Under the pieces are notes generated by a model. That model was not told the origin of the DNA and made no database searches. It saw only the letters and a list, made by a program, of their open reading frames with translations. Of a stretch of DNA of 64,000 nt, positions 20,367 to 45,680 are shown piece by piece (the stretch's first letter is position 1; each line of letters starts with the position of its first letter). Source of the DNA: Escherichia coli (GTDB taxonomy: Bacteria > Pseudomonadota > Gammaproteobacteria > Enterobacterales > Enterobacteriaceae); NCBI RefSeq assembly GCF_022846255.1, contig NZ_AP025682.1, one strand, 5' to 3'. Made by a program: the position numbers and the translations under genes.

Positions 20367-21023
20367 ACTTAACTCCACTGTCACACTTAACTCCCTTTCC
20401 CTTATTGGAATGCAGAGAAATAATCCTCGAGAATATGATTTATCATGCATATAAAATAAGAAAAAGCAAAATGAGTAAAATTAGGAAAACATAAAGATAC
20501 AGGTTCTGATAAAAACAGAATCCACTGCCGAGCAAAGAGTTATTTACTACAGCATAATAATCCATAATGTTTTTGTTGCGAAAACAATCTAATCATAACT
20601 ACCACGAATACTCAATCATCCACAAAATGGATTAAATGTGCTTTTTAATAATTAATTTATATGTTTAATGCATTAATTCTTAACATTAATTGATCAATAA
20701 TATTCAGCAAATGAATATCAAAAAATTCGCAAAACATATAATTCAATACAAATCATCAAGATAGGTTTTGCAACGCGTGCATTTTATCCCCCTTTCCCTC
20801 GTTGATTAGATGCAAAAAATTATTCTGAAATATGTCAACCGATGAAAAGCATCGGCGGTTAAGCAGAAATTAATATCGCTTGTTTTAACCACCGCAGCAC
20901 AATTAGCTAATTTTACGGATGCCGAACTCACAATGGCGTGACGTTTTTATTGCTTCAGGGTTGACATCCGTTTTTGTATCCAGTAACTCTAAAAGCATAT
21001 CGCATTCATCTGGAGCTGATTTA

Positions 21024-21110
21024 ATGACTCACATCGTTCGCTTTATCGGTCTACTACTACTAAACGCATCTTCTTTGCGCGGTAGACGAGTGAGCGGCAT
21101 CCAGCATTAA
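21024..21110 (+). CDS. leuL: leu operon leader peptide (28 aa, four consecutive Leu codons)
   Basis: [28 protein letters not shown] is embedded at the end of track ORF 20919..21110; sits immediately upstream of the attenuator hairpin and leuA. Confidence 0.9.
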
Positions 21111-21130
21111 GCCAGCACGCAGTCAAACAA

Positions 21131-21159
21131 AAACCCGCGCCATTGCGCGGGTTTTTTTA
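21131..21159 (+). terminator. leu attenuator, rho-independent terminator
   Basis: AAACCCGCGCcattgCGCGGGTTT followed by a T-run, between leuL stop and leuA start. Confidence 0.85.
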
Positions 21160-25912: not shown

Positions 25913-26143
25913 AAAAGAAAAAAGCCAGCAGATAATCACTGCTGGCGTGGCGATTAACACCAATACTCAGTCACACATGATGTCCGCAAATCAGTAGTCA
26001 GAATGACTCCCCTCCCACTGCATCAGTTCTTCAAGCATGGTTAATCGTTGTGGGACGCTTAACCAACGCAACCAGCACAACTTCGCTATCGCGGTAAAAT
26101 AGTGCTGATAAAACTGACGCATGGGGCACCTCCTTGCTTCATC
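25913..26143 (-). ncRNA. sgrS: SgrS small RNA (glucose-phosphate stress); contains the sgrT ORF and a 3' hairpin plus U-tract terminator
   Basis: Minus strand begins GATGAAGCAAGG...; 3' region carries the GUGUGACUGAGUAUUGGUGU pairing segment and ends in GCCAGCAG...CUGCUGGC hairpin plus U-run; divergent from sgrR. Confidence 0.85.
25991..26122 (-). CDS. sgrT: SgrT small protein (43 aa) encoded within SgrS
   Basis: MRQFYQHYFTAIAKLCWLRWLSVPQRLTMLEELMQWEGSHSDY is the C-terminal part of track ORF 25991..26242; located inside the sgrS 5' region. Confidence 0.8.
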   Translation of the reverse strand: MRQFYQHYFTAIAKLCWLRWLSVPQRLTMLEELMQWEGSHSDY

Positions 26144-26210: not shown

Positions 26211-27866
26211 ATGCCATCTGCTCGTCTGCAACAACAGTTCATCCGCCTGTGGCAATGCTGCGAGGGTAAATCTCAGGAGACCACGCTCAACGAACTGGCA
26301 GCGTTACTGAGTTGCTCGCGTCGTCATATGCGCACCCTGCTCAACACCATGCAGGATCGCGGCTGGCTGACGTGGGAAGCGGAAGTCGGGCGCGGTAAAC
26401 GTTCACGCCTGACATTCCTCTATACCGGGCTGGCGCTTCAGCAACAGCGGGCGGAAGACCTGCTGGAGCAGGATCGTATCGACCAACTAGTGCAGTTGGT
26501 TGGCGACAAAGCGACTGTGCGGCAAATGCTGGTTTCTCATCTGGGCCGCAGCTTCCGCCAGGGGCGGCACATCCTGCGCGTGCTCTACTATCGTCCGTTG
26601 CGTAATCTGCTACCTGGCAGCGCATTGCGCCGTTCTGAAACCCATATCGCCCGGCAAATCTTCAGTTCGCTAACGCGCATAAATGAGGAAAATGGGGAAC
26701 TGGAAGCAGACATCGCACACCACTGGCAGCAAATATCACCGCTTCACTGGCGTTTCTTTTTGCGTCCAGGAGTCCATTTTCACCATGGTCGTGAACTGGA
26801 AATGGACGATGTGATCGCCTCTTTAAAACGAATCAATACGCTTCCGCTCTATTCGCATATTGCTAACATTGTGTCGCCGACGCCCTGGACGCTGGATATC
26901 CATCTCACGCAACCGGACCGCTGGTTGCCGTTACTGCTGGGGCAAGTTCCGGCAATGATCCTGCCGCGCGAATGGGAAACCCTCAGTAACTTTGCCAGCC
27001 ATCCCATCGGCACCGGTCCGTATGCGGTGATCCGCAACAGCACCAATCAACTGAAAATTCAGGCATTCGATGACTTCTTCGGTTACCGGGCATTAATCGA
27101 CGAAGTTAACGTCTGGGTTCTGCCGGAAATTGCCGACGAGCCAGCCGGAGGGCTGATGCTAAAAGGTCCACAGGGCGAGGAAAAAGAGATTGAAAGCCGC
27201 CTGGAGGAAGGTTGCTACTATTTACTGTTCGACAGCCGCACCCATCGAGGGGCGAATCAGCAAGTCAGAGACTGGGTAAGCTATGTGCTTTCTCCGACGA
27301 ATCTGGTCTATTTCGCTGAGGAACAGTACCAGCAACTGTGGTTCCCGGCTTATGGACTGCTCCCCCGTTGGCACCATGCCCGCACCATAAAGAGCGAAAA
27401 ACCGGCTGGTCTGGAAAGCCTCACCCTGACCTTTTATCAGGATCACAGCGAGCATCGGGTGATTGCCGGGATCATGCAGCAGATTCTGGCAAGTCACCAG
27501 GTCACGCTGGAAATCAAAGAGATCAGCTACGATCAGTGGCATGAAGGAGAGATCGAGAGCGATATCTGGCTTAACAGCGCCAACTTTACGCTGCCGCTGG
27601 ATTTTTCGCTGTTCGCGCACTTGTGCGAGGTGCCGCTGCTCCAACACTGTATTCCGATCGACTGGCAAGCCGACGCCGCCCGCTGGCGCAATGGCGAAAT
27701 GAACCTGGCGAACTGGTGCCAGCAACTGGTCGCCAGCAAAGCAATGGTGCCACTTATCCACCACTGGCTGATCATTCAGGGGCAACGTAGTATGCGCGGC
27801 CTGCGCATGAACACCCTCGGCTGGTTCGATTTTAAATCAGCGTGGTTTGCACCACCGGATCCATGA
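26211..27866 (+). CDS. sgrR: Transcriptional regulator SgrR
   Basis: Track ORF 26190..27866 trimmed to [22 protein letters not shown]... (551 aa). Confidence 0.93.
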
Positions 27867-27894
27867 TTGCTGGTTGATAACAAAATCACTACAC

Positions 27895-28005
27895 TAACGC
27901 CGTTCTCAACGGGGTGCCACGCAGCCGCGTGCGCTGAGAAAATACCCGTCGAACCTGATCCGGATAACGCCGGCGAAGGGATTTGAGGCTCCTTCTCAAG
28001 TCCTT
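27895..28005 (+). promoter_or_regulatory. TPP (thi-box) riboswitch in the thiBPQ leader (corresponds to SroA)
   Basis: CUGAGA ... ACCUGAUCCGGAUAACGCCGGCGAAGGGA thi-box elements read directly, immediately upstream of thiB. Confidence 0.85.
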
Positions 28006-28029
28006 TGCCACTCTTTTGTGAGGTGCAAA

Positions 28030-29013
28030 GTGTTAAAAAAATGTCTTCCCCTGCTGTTGCTGTGCACAGCGCCTGTTTTCGCTAAACCTGTTCTGACTGT
28101 TTATACCTACGATTCCTTTGCCGCTGACTGGGGACCTGGTCCGGTAGTCAAAAAAGCCTTTGAAGCAGACTGTAATTGCGAACTGAAACTGGTGGCGCTG
28201 GAAGATGGCGTTTCGCTTCTCAACCGTCTGCGGATGGAAGGCAAAAACAGTAAAGCCGATGTGGTGCTGGGGCTGGATAACAATCTGTTAGACGCCGCCA
28301 GCAAAACAGGGCTGTTTGCTAAAAGCGGTGTGGCAGCGGAAGCCGTTAACGTTCCTGGCGGCTGGAATAATGACACTTTCGTACCGTATGATTACGGCTA
28401 TTTCGCCTTCGTCTATGACAAGAACAAACTGAAAAATCCGCCGCAAAGCCTGAAAGAACTGGTTGAGAGCGATCAAAACTGGCGGGTGATTTATGAAGAT
28501 CCACGTACCAGTACACCGGGGCTGGGTCTGTTGCTATGGATGCAAAAAGTCTATGGCGATAACGCCCCGCAAGCCTGGCAGAAACTGGCGAAGAAAACTG
28601 TCACGGTCACCAAAGGCTGGAGCGAAGCCTACGGCCTGTTTTTAAAAGGCGAAAGCGATCTGGTACTGAGTTACACCACCTCTCCGGCTTATCACATTCT
28701 CGAAGAGAAGAAAGATAACTACGCCGCCACAAACTTTATCGAAGGTCACTATCTGCAGGTGGAAGTTGCCGCCCGCACCGCTGCCAGCAAGCAGCCAGAG
28801 CTGGCGCAAAAATTCCTCCAGTTTATGGTTTCTCCGGCTTTTCAGAATGCGATCCCAACCGGCAACTGGATGTATCCGGTAGCAAACGTCACTCTGCCTG
28901 CAGGATTTGAACAATTGACCAAACCAGCCACCACACTAGAGTTCACACCCGCCGAAGTGGCGGCACAACGTCAGGCATGGATTAGCGAATGGCAACGCGC
29001 CGTCAGCCGTTAA
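28030..29013 (+). CDS. thiB: Thiamine ABC transporter periplasmic binding protein
   Basis: Track ORF 28018..29013; trimmed to in-frame GTG giving MLKKCLPLLLLCTAPVFA... (327 aa, signal peptide); GAGG about 7 nt upstream. Confidence 0.9.
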   Translation: MLKKCLPLLLLCTAPVFAKPVLTVYTYDSFAADWGPGPVVKKAFEADCNCELKLVALEDGVSLLNRLRMEGKNSKADVVLGLDNNLLDAASKTGLFAKSGVAAEAVNVPGGWNNDTFVPYDYGYFAFVYDKNKLKNPPQSLKELVESDQNWRVIYEDPRTSTPGLGLLLWMQKVYGDNAPQAWQKLAKKTVTVTKGWSEAYGLFLKGESDLVLSYTTSPAYHILEEKKDNYAATNFIEGHYLQVEVAARTAASKQPELAQKFLQFMVSPAFQNAIPTGNWMYPVANVTLPAGFEQLTKPATTLEFTPAEVAAQRQAWISEWQRAVSR

Positions 29014-30599
29014 TTCCCGGCTGGTTAATTCCAGGCGTAAGCGCCGCCACGCTGGTGGTAGCGGTTGCACTGGCGGCGTTTCTCGCCCTGTGGTGGAACG
29101 CGCCGCAGGGTGACTGGGTGTCAGTCTGGCAGGACAGCTACCTGTGGCATGTGGTGCGCTTCTCCTTCTGGCAGGCGTTTCTCTCGGCGCTGCTCTCTGT
29201 CGTACCCGCAATATTCCTCGCCCGCGCCCTCTATCGCAGGCGCTTTCCTGGGCGACAGATGCTGTTGCGTCTGTGCGCAATGACCTTGATCCTCCCGGTG
29301 CTGGTTGCCGTTTTCGGCATTCTTAGCGTCTATGGTCGCCAGGGCTGGCTGGCCTCGCTCTGGCAATCACTTGGTCTGGAGTGGACCTTTTCGCCCTACG
29401 GCCTGCAAGGCATTTTGCTGGCCCATGTGTTTTTTAATCTGCCGATGGCTAGCCGTTTATTACTCCAGGCACTGGAAAACATTCCCGGCGAACAACGTCA
29501 GCTTGCCGCCCAGCTTGGGATGCGCGGCTGTCACTTCTTCCGCTTCGTCGAATGGCCGTGGTTACGGCGACAAATCCCGCCGGTTGCCGCACTAATCTTT
29601 ATGCTCTGTTTCGCCAGCTTCGCCACCGTGCTATCGCTGGGCGGCGGTCCGCAGGCGACCACTATCGAGCTGGCAATCTATCAGGCGCTGAGTTACGACT
29701 ACGATCCTGCCCGCGCGGCAATGCTGGCGCTGATCCAGATGGTGTGCTGCCTCGGGCTGGTGCTGTTGAGTCAGCGATTGAGTAAGGCCATTGCGCCTGG
29801 TACCACACTGCTGCAAGGCTGGCGCGACCCGGACGATCGTCTGCATAGTCGCATTTGCGACACGGCGTTAATTGTGCTGGCGCTGCTGCTGTTGCTGCCA
29901 CCGTTACTGGCGGTGATCGTCGATGGGGTAAATCGCCAGTTGCCGGAAGTGCTGGCACAACCGGTGCTGTGGCAGGCGCTGTGGACCTCGTTGCGTATTG
30001 CGCTGGCGGCAGGCGTATTGTGCGTAGTGCTGACCATGATGCTGCTATGGAGCAGTCGCGAACTTCGGGCGCGGCAGAAAATGCTGGCGGGTCAGGCGCT
30101 GGAGATGAGCGGCATGTTGATCCTCGCCATGCCGGGGATTGTGCTGGCTACGGGCTTCTTTTTACTGCTCAACAACACTATCGGCCTGCCACAATCTGCT
30201 GACGGCATTGTGATTTTCACCAATGCGTTAATGGCAATCCCTTATGCGCTGAAAGTGCTGGAAAACCCGATGCGCGATATCACCGCCCGCTACAGCATGT
30301 TGTGTCAGTCGCTGGGCATTGAAGGCTGGTCACGCTTAAAAGTGGTGGAGCTGCGCGCCCTGAAACGTCCACTGGCGCAGGCGCTGGCCTTTGCTTGTGT
30401 GCTGTCGATTGGTGATTTTGGCGTGGTGGCATTGTTCGGTAACGATGATTTCCGTACCCTGCCGTTTTATCTCTACCAGCAAATTGGCTCCTATCGCAGC
30501 CAGGACGGCGCGGTCACCGCGTTAATTCTGCTGCTGCTCTGTTTTCTGCTGTTTACCGTGATTGAAAATATACCGGGGCGAAATGTTAAAACTGACTGA
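28989..30599 (+). CDS. thiP: Thiamine ABC transporter permease
   Basis: Track ORF, 536 aa, multi-pass membrane protein; 25-nt overlap with thiB. Confidence 0.95.
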
Positions 30600-31281
30600 T
30601 ATCACCTGGCTTTACCACCATTTGCCGATGCGTTTTAGCTTAACGGTGGAACGCGGCGAGCAGGTGGCGATCCTCGGGCCAAGCGGCGCGGGTAAAAGTA
30701 CCCTGCTGAATTTGATCGCCGGTTTTCTGACGCCAGCCAGCGGTTCGCTGACTATCGACGGCGTTGATCACACCACGACGCCGCCGTCACTCCGTCCGGT
30801 GTCGATGCTGTTTCAGGAGAACAACCTGTTCAGCCACCTGACGGTCGCGCAGAACATCGGGCTGGGGCTAAATCCGGGGTTGAAACTAAATGCGGCGCAG
30901 CAGAAGAAAATGCACGCGATTGCCCACCAGATGGGGATTGATAATTTAATGGCGCGGTTACCTGGCGAGCTTTCCGGCGGTCAGCGACAGCGCGTGGCGT
31001 TGGCGCGTTGTCTGGTACGCGAACAGCCCATTTTATTGCTCGATGAACCGTTTTCCGCGCTCGATCCGGCGCTACGTCAGGAGATGCTGACGCTAGTGAG
31101 CACGAGCTGCCAACAGCAAAAAATGACGCTCTTGATGGTGTCGCACAGTGTGGAAGATGCGGCGCGGATCGCCACGCGCTCGGTGGTGGTCGCCGACGGG
31201 CGTATCGCCTGGCAGGGTAAGACCGATGAGTTGTTGAGCGGTAAGGCGAGTGCTTCGGCGCTGTTGGGAATTAAAGGTTAA
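30583..31281 (+). CDS. thiQ: Thiamine ABC transporter ATPase
   Basis: Track ORF 30562..31281 trimmed to [20 protein letters not shown]... (232 aa); Walker [13 protein letters not shown] signature LSGGQ. Confidence 0.93.
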
Positions 31282-45589: not shown

Positions 45590-45680
45590 AGGCCGGAGAA
45601 GGCGTTCACGCCGCATCCGGCAATTTTGCGCCGATTGCCTGATGCGACGCGGGCCGCGTCTTATCAGGCCTACACGTTGA
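45590..45680. repeat. REP palindromes between convergent rluA and djlA
   Basis: GGCGTTCACGCCGCATCCGGCA and GCCTGATGCGACGCGGGCCGCGTCTTATCAGGCCTAC motifs. Confidence 0.75.

Follow-up and report, generated by a model that had tools for sequence, protein, structure and literature searches.

The TPP riboswitch of the Escherichia coli thiBPQ leader: predicted control of translation initiation and comparison across enterobacteria

The closest described relative of the element considered here is the thiB (tbpA) riboswitch of Escherichia coli K-12. Binding of TPP by the K-12-type sequence has been shown by RNase H probing, by smFRET, and with the binding-site mutants G35C and G17C (PMC10578472, PMC11487190), and the tbpA riboswitch prefers to sense TPP cotranscriptionally (PMC11487190). 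Cotranscriptional SHAPE-Seq resolved an antisequestering stem that extends into the aptamer (PMC10578472). Nucleotides 95-99 (window 27994-27998), which repeat the 5' strand of P1 and are complementary to its 3' strand, are essential; when they were deleted or randomised, the switch was locked OFF (PMC10578472). At the other end of the leader, the toeprint at C144 was reduced 2.2-fold by TPP (PMC11487190). The secondary structures of the tbpA riboswitch and of the E. coli thiM riboswitch have been called very similar (PMC11487190).

The leader analyzed here lies in a 64,000-nucleotide stretch of E. coli chromosomal DNA, referred to below as the window, and all coordinates are positions within it. 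Positions 27900-28032 very probably form the 5' leader of the thiBPQ (tbpA-thiP-thiQ) mRNA and act as a TPP-sensing OFF riboswitch, mainly on translation initiation, with the thiB start at GTG 28030. The element itself is already known: it is annotated in RefSeq and in Rfam, and it has been characterised experimentally. For comparison, 80 enterobacterial thiB loci were fetched and the leader was located in 77 of them, giving 78 leaders with the window included; structures were tested on 51 distinct leaders without large P3 inserts, from many enterobacterial genera.

Aptamer, promoter and operon

An original prediction, made from the letters of the window, had read a TPP riboswitch controlling thiBPQ in this leader and had pointed to the Rfam TPP model as the way to check it. 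That model (RF00059) is matched from end to end (model positions 1-105 of 105) by 27900-27999 on the plus strand, at 66.1 bits, above the gathering score of 54.3 bits (E = 9.2e-11 in a search of both strands of the 64 kb window against 4227 families). A RefSeq riboswitch feature occupies identical coordinates in two strains that are 100% and 96% identical to the window, the latter being K-12-type. We therefore took 27900..27999 (+) as the TPP aptamer (THI element) plus linker, as delimited by RF00059 and the RefSeq feature. Its helices follow from the cmscan alignment: P1 is formed by 27905-27909 with 27983-27987, P2 by 27910-27915 with 27942-27948, P3 lies at 27916-27934, and P4/P5 at 27954-27979, all on the plus strand. 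The optional P3a helix is absent, appearing as a 10-column deletion in the same alignment. The thi-box core, which the prediction had described as readable, can indeed be read directly. CUGAGA stands in J3-2 at 27934-27939, and ACCUGAUCCGGAUAACGCCGGCGAAGGGA at 27953-27981 agrees with the P4/P5 consensus ACCUGAUCYGGNUAAUNCCNGCGNAGGGA; both are invariant in the 51 related leaders. The P3 loop is the one place where the window aptamer departs from the K-12 type, and the window aptamer would be expected to bind TPP in the same way.

The aptamer lies 31 nt upstream of thiB-thiP-thiQ, on the same (+) strand. The thiB (tbpA) coding sequence extends over 28030..29013 (+), encodes 327 aa, and coincides exactly with the RefSeq CDS. 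Its product scored 637 bits against NCBIfam TIGR01276 (thiB), and an alignment to PDB 2QRY ('Thiamine-binding periplasmic protein') covers its residues 18-327 (E 4e-208). Translated from 28030, it begins MLKKCLPLLLLCTAPVFAKPVLTVY and carries a predicted signal peptide, MLKKCLPLLLLCTAPVFA; on these matches it is identified as the periplasmic thiamin/TPP-binding protein. The permease gene thiP (28989..30599, +; NCBIfam NF006953 ThiP, 1190 bits) overlaps the end of thiB by 25 nt, and the ATPase gene thiQ (30583..31281, +; NCBIfam NF008039 ThiQ, 448 bits, aligned over 1-231 of 234) begins 17 nt before thiP ends. The true ATG of thiQ, at 30583, lies seven codons inside a mechanical ORF that opens at TTG 30562, and the RefSeq thiQ start in locus L083 maps to the same window position, 30583. 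With the Rfam match, the RefSeq feature, and the NCBIfam identification of ThiB, ThiP and ThiQ downstream, the predicted control of thiBPQ by a TPP riboswitch was borne out. A 40-aa ORF running antisense to the aptamer (27889-28011, -) is regarded as mechanical.

Transcription appears to begin at 27900..27902 (+), a position obtained by mapping published positions onto the window and not measured here. In the numbering of PMC11487190, +1 corresponds to 27902, and G35, G121, U130 and C144 then fall on the stated bases; in that of PMC10578472, +1 corresponds to 27900, and G17 and nucleotides 5-9, 85-89 and 95-99 do likewise. From the sequence and from the start implied by this numbering, the probable -10 hexamer of the thiBPQ promoter is TACACT (27890..27895, +), with a weak -35, TTGCTG (27867-27872, +), 17 nt to its 5' side. 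The sgrR stop codon (27864-27866) is directly 5' of the weak -35. The motif TACAMT is kept at the -10 position in related leaders. Because a promoter consensus scan of 27500-28400 found no sigma-70-like site, TACACT is called from the published start site and conservation only.

The immediate surroundings are common in the species. A 401-nt piece around the riboswitch is 100% identical to E. coli strain SK1144 and has matches in 5399 of 5426 complete E. coli genomes. The gap between sgrR and the riboswitch is about 1 kb longer in some E. coli strains than in the window; the additional sequence carries the T3SS effector gene espY2, and similarity to the window resumes at 27865.

Expression platform and timing of the decision

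The proposed switch would pivot on an 8-nt switching sequence, CCUUUGCC (28002-28009), that can pair with either of two partners, each excluding the other. When TPP is bound, the helices P1-P5 of the aptamer (27905-27987) would be locked, leaving CCUUUGCC free to pair with GCAAAG (28025-28030) while a neighboring CUC pairs with the GAG of the Shine-Dalgarno sequence. Closure of this hairpin (28003-28030) would bury both the GAGG and the G of the GUG codon, and 30S binding would be poor. Without TPP, the linker UCUCAAGUC (27994-28002) would invade P1 once it has been transcribed; the resulting anti-P1 hairpin would then zip back through the 3' strands of P4/P5 (GGCGAAGG) and capture CCUUUGCC, so that the Shine-Dalgarno sequence and start codon would be open for a time, during ribosome loading.

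Whether TPP also acts on the amount of mRNA is a matter on which the two published studies disagree (PMC10578472, PMC11487190). TPP might additionally lower thiBPQ mRNA, with Rho, RNase E or some other factor acting on the early coding region when it is left untranslated. Such dual control is an addition to the main model and not an alternative to it. Transcriptional lacZ fusions with 12 codons were repressed 1.6- to 3.9-fold by TPP, and the repression persisted in a start-codon mutant and was lost in a Shine-Dalgarno mutant (PMC11487190). Against this, bicyclomycin had no effect on repression, and a translational-only conclusion was reached with a 4-codon construct (PMC10578472). We regard this second layer of control as quite possible and hold it only tentatively.

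Each of the structures that control of translation calls for is predicted in the window. The short anti-P1 hairpin (27980..28002, +) consists of GAUUUGAGG (27980-27988), a 5-nt loop, and UCUCAAGUC; it sequesters the P1 3' strand, is present in the unconstrained minimum free energy (MFE) structure, and has a predicted energy of -8.9 kcal/mol. Within this region, the 5' strand of P1 (UUCUCAA, 27903-27909) recurs at 27993-27999. The extended anti-P1, or antisequestering, hairpin of the ON state (27972..28009, +) is made by pairing of GGCGAAGG (27972-27979), which comprises the 3' strands of P5 and P4, with the perfectly complementary CCUUUGCC. This hairpin spans 38 nt, is stacked on the short anti-P1 stem, amounts to -19.8 kcal/mol alone, and is incompatible both with the aptamer and with the Shine-Dalgarno hairpin; it corresponds to the 'extended antisequestering stem' of PMC10578472.

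The sequestering hairpin of the OFF state (28003..28030, +) is predicted from CUUUGC (28003-28008) with GCAAAG and from CUC (28011-28013) with GAG (28020-28022), with an energy of -10.6 kcal/mol and a pairing probability of at least 0.9 for most bases. It pairs three bases of the Shine-Dalgarno sequence as well as the G of the GUG start, and in the full-length ensemble bases 28020-28022 were only 3-4% unpaired. The original prediction had supposed that the riboswitch hides the region of the Shine-Dalgarno sequence and start; the GAG and GCAAAG segments do lie in this hairpin with a pairing probability above 90%, and a mutation that weakens the sequestering stem abolishes the response to TPP (PMC10578472). 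The span that had been proposed for the element, 27895-28005, covers the aptamer and leaves out the Shine-Dalgarno sequence, the start codon, and most of this hairpin. The regulatory unit should thus be drawn to 28032, not to 28005.

Folding at successive nascent lengths gave an ordered series. The short anti-P1 hairpin was first seen at 101 nt, the extended antisequestering hairpin was the MFE structure at 110-122 nt, and from 131 nt onward the MFE structure combined P4/P5, the short anti-P1 hairpin, and the Shine-Dalgarno hairpin, the shift occurring once GCAAAG has been transcribed. This order in the model fits the published cotranscriptional switch. The unconstrained MFE structure of 27902-28050 (-48.4 kcal/mol) likewise contains both the short anti-P1 and the Shine-Dalgarno hairpins. 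At full length, an ON-type fold lies about 5 kcal/mol above the MFE structure in the absence of ligand.

The prediction had also proposed folding the leader with and without ligand-bound constraints. The Shine-Dalgarno hairpin was retained when the aptamer was enforced and was present when it was not, in keeping with sequestration; the accompanying difference in accessibility was modest, with a mean unpaired probability over 28020-28023 of 0.21 under the aptamer constraint, 0.31 under no constraint, and 0.43 when the antisequestering hairpin was imposed. The nearest-neighbor model therefore gives no clean two-state switch, since the full-length Shine-Dalgarno hairpin is predicted whether or not the aptamer forms. 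We dropped a simple equilibrium ON/OFF picture in favor of a kinetic one because Shine-Dalgarno accessibility in the constrained ensembles differs only modestly. As the full-length model favors the sequestered fold even without ligand, we infer that the decision is kinetic and made cotranscriptionally. On the same modeling, the lack of a clean equilibrium ON state agrees with published observations on this riboswitch, in which basal expression is low and regulation is a modest 2- to 4-fold (PMC11487190).

A thermodynamic switch, reversible after transcription and not decided kinetically during it, is improbable on balance. One equilibrium-refolding SHAPE replicate gave a similar ligand-dependent bifurcation (PMC10578472), and TPP supplied after transcription still produced some repression (PMC11487190), as such a switch would predict. 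An equilibrium switch would nevertheless have little ON state, because the ligand-free RNA already favors the sequestered fold by the margin given above; moreover, TPP binding was 5.7-fold more efficient cotranscriptionally, and pause-136 complexes were refractory to TPP (PMC11487190). We thus retain the kinetic, cotranscriptional decision as the preferred account.

Premature termination at an intrinsic terminator, as in most Bacillus TPP riboswitches, in place of a block to translation is very unlikely: the leader does end in a stem-loop, the sequestering hairpin, and a terminator-like site lies just inside thiB, yet hairpin 28003-28030 is followed by UGUUAAAAAAA and not by a U-run, a terminator scan found no terminator-like site in 27900-28030, and single-round in vitro transcription yielded only the full-length product at rising TPP (PMC10578472). 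The scan returned two hits in the region, at 27705-27722 (-) and 28052-28071 (+, just inside thiB), against 0.9 expected. Both were rejected as an expression platform, being at chance level in number and neither lying between the aptamer and the start codon.

The thiB start codon

Translation of thiB starts at GTG 28030, and not at the in-frame GTG 28018. This conclusion follows from the agreement of the RefSeq start, conservation in the 78 leaders, and the published toeprint and mutants. As the original prediction had it, a GTG start (28030..28032, +) is preceded by a Shine-Dalgarno GAGG (28020..28023, +), read from the sequence, with a 6-nt spacer; the RefSeq CDS begins at this codon, which is GTG in 78 of 78 leaders. 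In K-12, the mutation U130A (window 28031) nearly abolishes tbpA translation, G121C (window 28022) cripples the Shine-Dalgarno sequence and leaves expression low and unregulated, and the 30S toeprint at C144 (window 28045) lies 15 nt downstream of G129 (28030) (PMC11487190). Alignments to PDB 2QRY and NCBIfam, together with signal-peptide reasoning, were set aside as evidence here; the alignments begin at residue 6 or 18 and cannot tell the two starts apart.

The prediction had further remarked that the mechanical ORF track opens four codons upstream, and it does so at GTG 28018..28020 (+). This codon lies in the loop of the sequestering hairpin, where its third base is the first G of GAGG, and it has no Shine-Dalgarno sequence of its own, being preceded by CCACUCUUUU. 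The position is highly variable among the 78 leaders: TTG was found in 35, CTG in 20, ATG in 9, AAG in 4, CAG in 3 and TAG in 2, while TAA, TCG, CAA, AAA and GTG were each seen once, the single GTG being that of the window. A start-capable codon thus occurs in 45 of 78 leaders and a non-start codon in 33, with a stop in 3. The K-12-type strain has TTG. Of 5397 E. coli genomes, only 1039 agree fully with the window over 27975-28035; among the non-identical genomes, T at 28018 was verified in the K-12-type strain. The GTG at 28018 is a lineage polymorphism of what is usually TTG.

Were initiation to occur at GTG 28018, the precursor would be 331 aa long and begin MRCKVLKK, and GTG 28030 would be read internally as valine. 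The upstream codon is in frame, no stop codon intervenes before 28030, it is predicted to be 96% unpaired, and MRCK- would make an acceptable, positively charged signal-peptide N-region. We nevertheless consider this reading highly doubtful, given the absence of a Shine-Dalgarno sequence, the sharing of its third base with the GAGG that serves 28030, the 33 leaders with a non-start codon (3 of them a stop) beside an invariant GTG 28030, the TTG of K-12, the RefSeq start, and the toeprint and U130A results. The mechanical start at 28018 should therefore be replaced by 28030.

A weaker form of the same idea starts from the T-to-G change at 28018, carried by about one-fifth of complete E. coli genomes as judged by identity over 27975-28035. 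Since GUG 28018 is in frame with thiB and its place in the loop of the sequestering hairpin is always unpaired, it might conceivably allow a low level of riboswitch-independent initiation. We think this scarcely probable. If true, it would produce some ThiB precursor with a signal peptide longer by four residues (MRCK-), and it would provide the lineage with a basal thiamin uptake insensitive to TPP.

Related leaders and known systems

The OFF structure was 98.3% paired across the 51 leaders, compared with 29-51% when the partners were slid. The aptamer helices were 94-100% pairable (P1, P2, P4 and P5, 99-100% paired), the sequestering helix was kept in 98.8% of cells, and in the ON hairpin all 15 pairs were kept in 99.3% of cells, with no covariation. 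Compensatory changes were observed at five pairs, all in P3; P1, P2, P4, P5 and the sequestering helix are invariant. Because of this invariance the covariation test is uninformative for both helices of the expression platform, and all of its signal comes from P3. Both alternative helices are, on the aligned sequences, universally available, with conservation rather than covariation as their support. The Shine-Dalgarno region, AGGTGCAAAGTG, and CCTTTGCC are likewise invariant in the 51 leaders, with free variation in the intervening loop and in the codons that follow the start. Such a distribution is the pattern to be expected of sequence that pairs in two ways. The expression platform shows unusual invariance among the genera of enterobacteria, and a plausible reason is that one 8-nt sequence must pair with two different partners.

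P3 is a different matter in other genera. In 21 of the 78 leaders it is enlarged, the distance from P1 to CUGAGA being 51-230 nt as compared with 22-35 nt in the rest. The class in which this distance is 146-153 nt carries both GTGAATCCCCAGGAG and GTGACTGGGGTGAGCG, which we take, from the ERIC1R and ERIC2 primers, to be the two conserved ERIC cores. The ERIC insert folds as a long extension of P3. Leaders of this kind include thiB leaders from Citrobacter and Klebsiella. The insert in locus L014 matches a dispersed repeat of about 129 nt found at a median of 13 places per E. coli genome, and among the matches listed these places lie under no annotated feature. Shorter P3 inserts, in which the terminal ACATAC.../...GTGTATG stem is retained, resemble remnants of deletion, and two loci have a further nested insert.

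These inserts bear on annotation. At the gathering threshold, the Rfam TPP model gave no match in the four leaders tested with full-length inserts (L005, L010, L033 and L068); the leaders tested with shorter inserts (L011, L059 and L075) still pass it. In L010 the loop of the Shine-Dalgarno-sequestering hairpin contains a second ERIC, oppositely oriented, and the closing helix of this hairpin is still predicted. We found no description of ERIC in the thiB riboswitch in the searchable literature, including the paper on TPP riboswitches of ESKAPE organisms. The occurrence of ERIC inside two variable loops of a riboswitch, in several genera, may interest riboswitch annotators more than the window element itself.

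Among known systems, Bacillus-type TPP riboswitches have the aptamer family RF00059 in common with the window, but they use an intrinsic terminator as expression platform, and the leader studied here has none. The E. coli thiC riboswitch responds to the same class of ligand and likewise senses it cotranscriptionally, with a sensing window set by an anti-P1 stem (PMC11487190). The thiC leader is larger, and both termination by Rho and regulatory pausing at the start site are documented for it; thiC itself lies outside the window. The E. coli thiM riboswitch, compared here by published descriptions, is likewise a translational OFF switch in which TPP leads to a sequestered Shine-Dalgarno sequence. 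It serves another gene, its control at the mRNA level needs 34 codons as compared with 12 for tbpA, and it uses Rho (PMC10578472, PMC11487190).

Closest of all is the E. coli K-12 thiB (tbpA) riboswitch, which has the same locus (sgrR-thiBPQ), aptamer, linker, switching sequence, Shine-Dalgarno sequence, and GUG start. Five base differences separate the window from the K-12 type in 27902-28050, none of them at a paired base: the P3 loop at 27923-27925 reads AGC in the window and GUA in K-12; position 28018, in the loop of the sequestering hairpin, is G in the window and U in K-12, which turns an in-frame TTG into GTG; and 28047 differs synonymously within a thiB codon. Folding predicts identical structures and energies for the two leaders, and by this likeness the window variant would be expected to behave as a K-12-type riboswitch.

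ERIC-type repeats within the thiB leader

Many genomes of Citrobacter, Klebsiella, Raoultella and Pseudocitrobacter carry an ERIC-type repeat of ~120 nt in the thiB TPP riboswitch, within its P3 stem-loop (27916-27934 in the window). In the leader this insert falls between GGGGTGC and GCTGAGA, at ~825-1190 in the coordinates of the fetched enterobacterial thiB loci (L-numbers), and is of full length in L005, L010, L014, L033, L034, L037, L043, L049, L052, L060, L068, L070 and L073. Shorter forms were observed in L059, L064, L067, L075, L011, L012, L016 and L019, and in some loci inserts of 22-63 nt appear to be deletion remnants of the repeat. Both conserved cores of the ERIC primers (ERIC1R and ERIC2) were present in the insert. 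The insert is predicted to fold as a long extension of P3, and E. coli genomes contain matches to its sequence, with a median of 13 places in each. In L033 and L037 an additional insert of ~80 nt is nested within the first. No description of an ERIC-type repeat in the thiB riboswitch was found in the literature searched.

L010 (Citrobacter sp. wls619) has a further ERIC-like copy at ~1060-1190 of that locus, oriented oppositely to the first. It occupies the loop of the hairpin that sequesters the Shine-Dalgarno sequence, between CCUUUGCCACC and GAGGUGCAAAG, and the sequestering helix is predicted by RNAfold to remain closed around it.

Detection of the interrupted riboswitches

Four leaders with the full-length repeat (L005, L010, L033 and L068, one of which also carries a nested insert) were compared with L011, L059, L075 and L022 using the Rfam TPP model. 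At the gathering threshold there was no match in any of the four full-length leaders tested, whereas leaders whose P3 insert does not exceed 63 nt scored above threshold, at 59.6-68.1 bits. Annotation based on Rfam would thus miss these four riboswitches, and would probably overlook the remaining thiB leaders with full-length inserts as well. Elsewhere in the window, Rfam matches above threshold were obtained for the SgrS sRNA, which is divergent from sgrR (25917-26143, minus strand, 226.6 bits), for the leader of the leucine operon (21010-21158, plus strand, 147.4 bits) and for the REP-type element naRNA4 (45591-45670, plus strand, 77.3 bits).

Reading frames of the operon and its neighbours

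Successive genes of the operon overlap, thiB and thiP by 25 nt (28989-29013) and thiP and thiQ by 17 nt (30583-30599), an arrangement of the sequence that suggests translational coupling along the operon; with such coupling, control exerted where thiB translation begins could extend to the downstream genes. Over-extension of the mechanical ORF, as for thiB, was also observed in two neighbours: thiQ, which was opened at TTG 30562 and for which the annotated start, supported by NCBIfam, is ATG 30583, and sgrR, which was opened at TTG 26190 and for which the RefSeq length implies ATG 26211. A GTG-initiated ORF of 40 aa on the minus strand (27889-28011) is antisense to the whole aptamer; the sequence here is GC-rich and structured, and we regard the frame as a mechanical ORF.

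The G at 28018, which opens the mechanical thiB ORF, is a lineage polymorphism. Identity to the window over 27975-28035 was found in 1039 of 5397 E. coli genomes; the position is T in the K-12-type strain, and T there gives a TTG codon in Escherichia sp. (L003, L004) and E. albertii (L009). The position falls in the hairpin loop, and the predicted fold is unaffected by G.

Boundaries of the leader

In some E. coli strains the stretch from the sgrR stop codon to the riboswitch is ~1 kb longer than in the window. In the example of L083 (E. coli MMC-J-0078) the additional sequence spans 1496-2535, with similarity to the window resuming at 27865, and contains an annotated T3SS effector gene, espY2, on the opposite strand (1725-2294); the presumed thiB promoter is still joined to the riboswitch.

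A terminator-like hairpin followed by CCTGTTTTCG was observed on the plus strand at 28052-28071, within the signal-peptide codons of thiB; terminator-like sites in this region occur at chance level. Mapped onto the window, the +1 of the leader numbering falls at 27900 or 27902, the two experimental papers (PMC10578472, PMC11487190) differing by 2 nt. Twelve codons are reported to be sufficient for mRNA-level control by this riboswitch (PMC11487190), and the terminator-like hairpin sits just past them.
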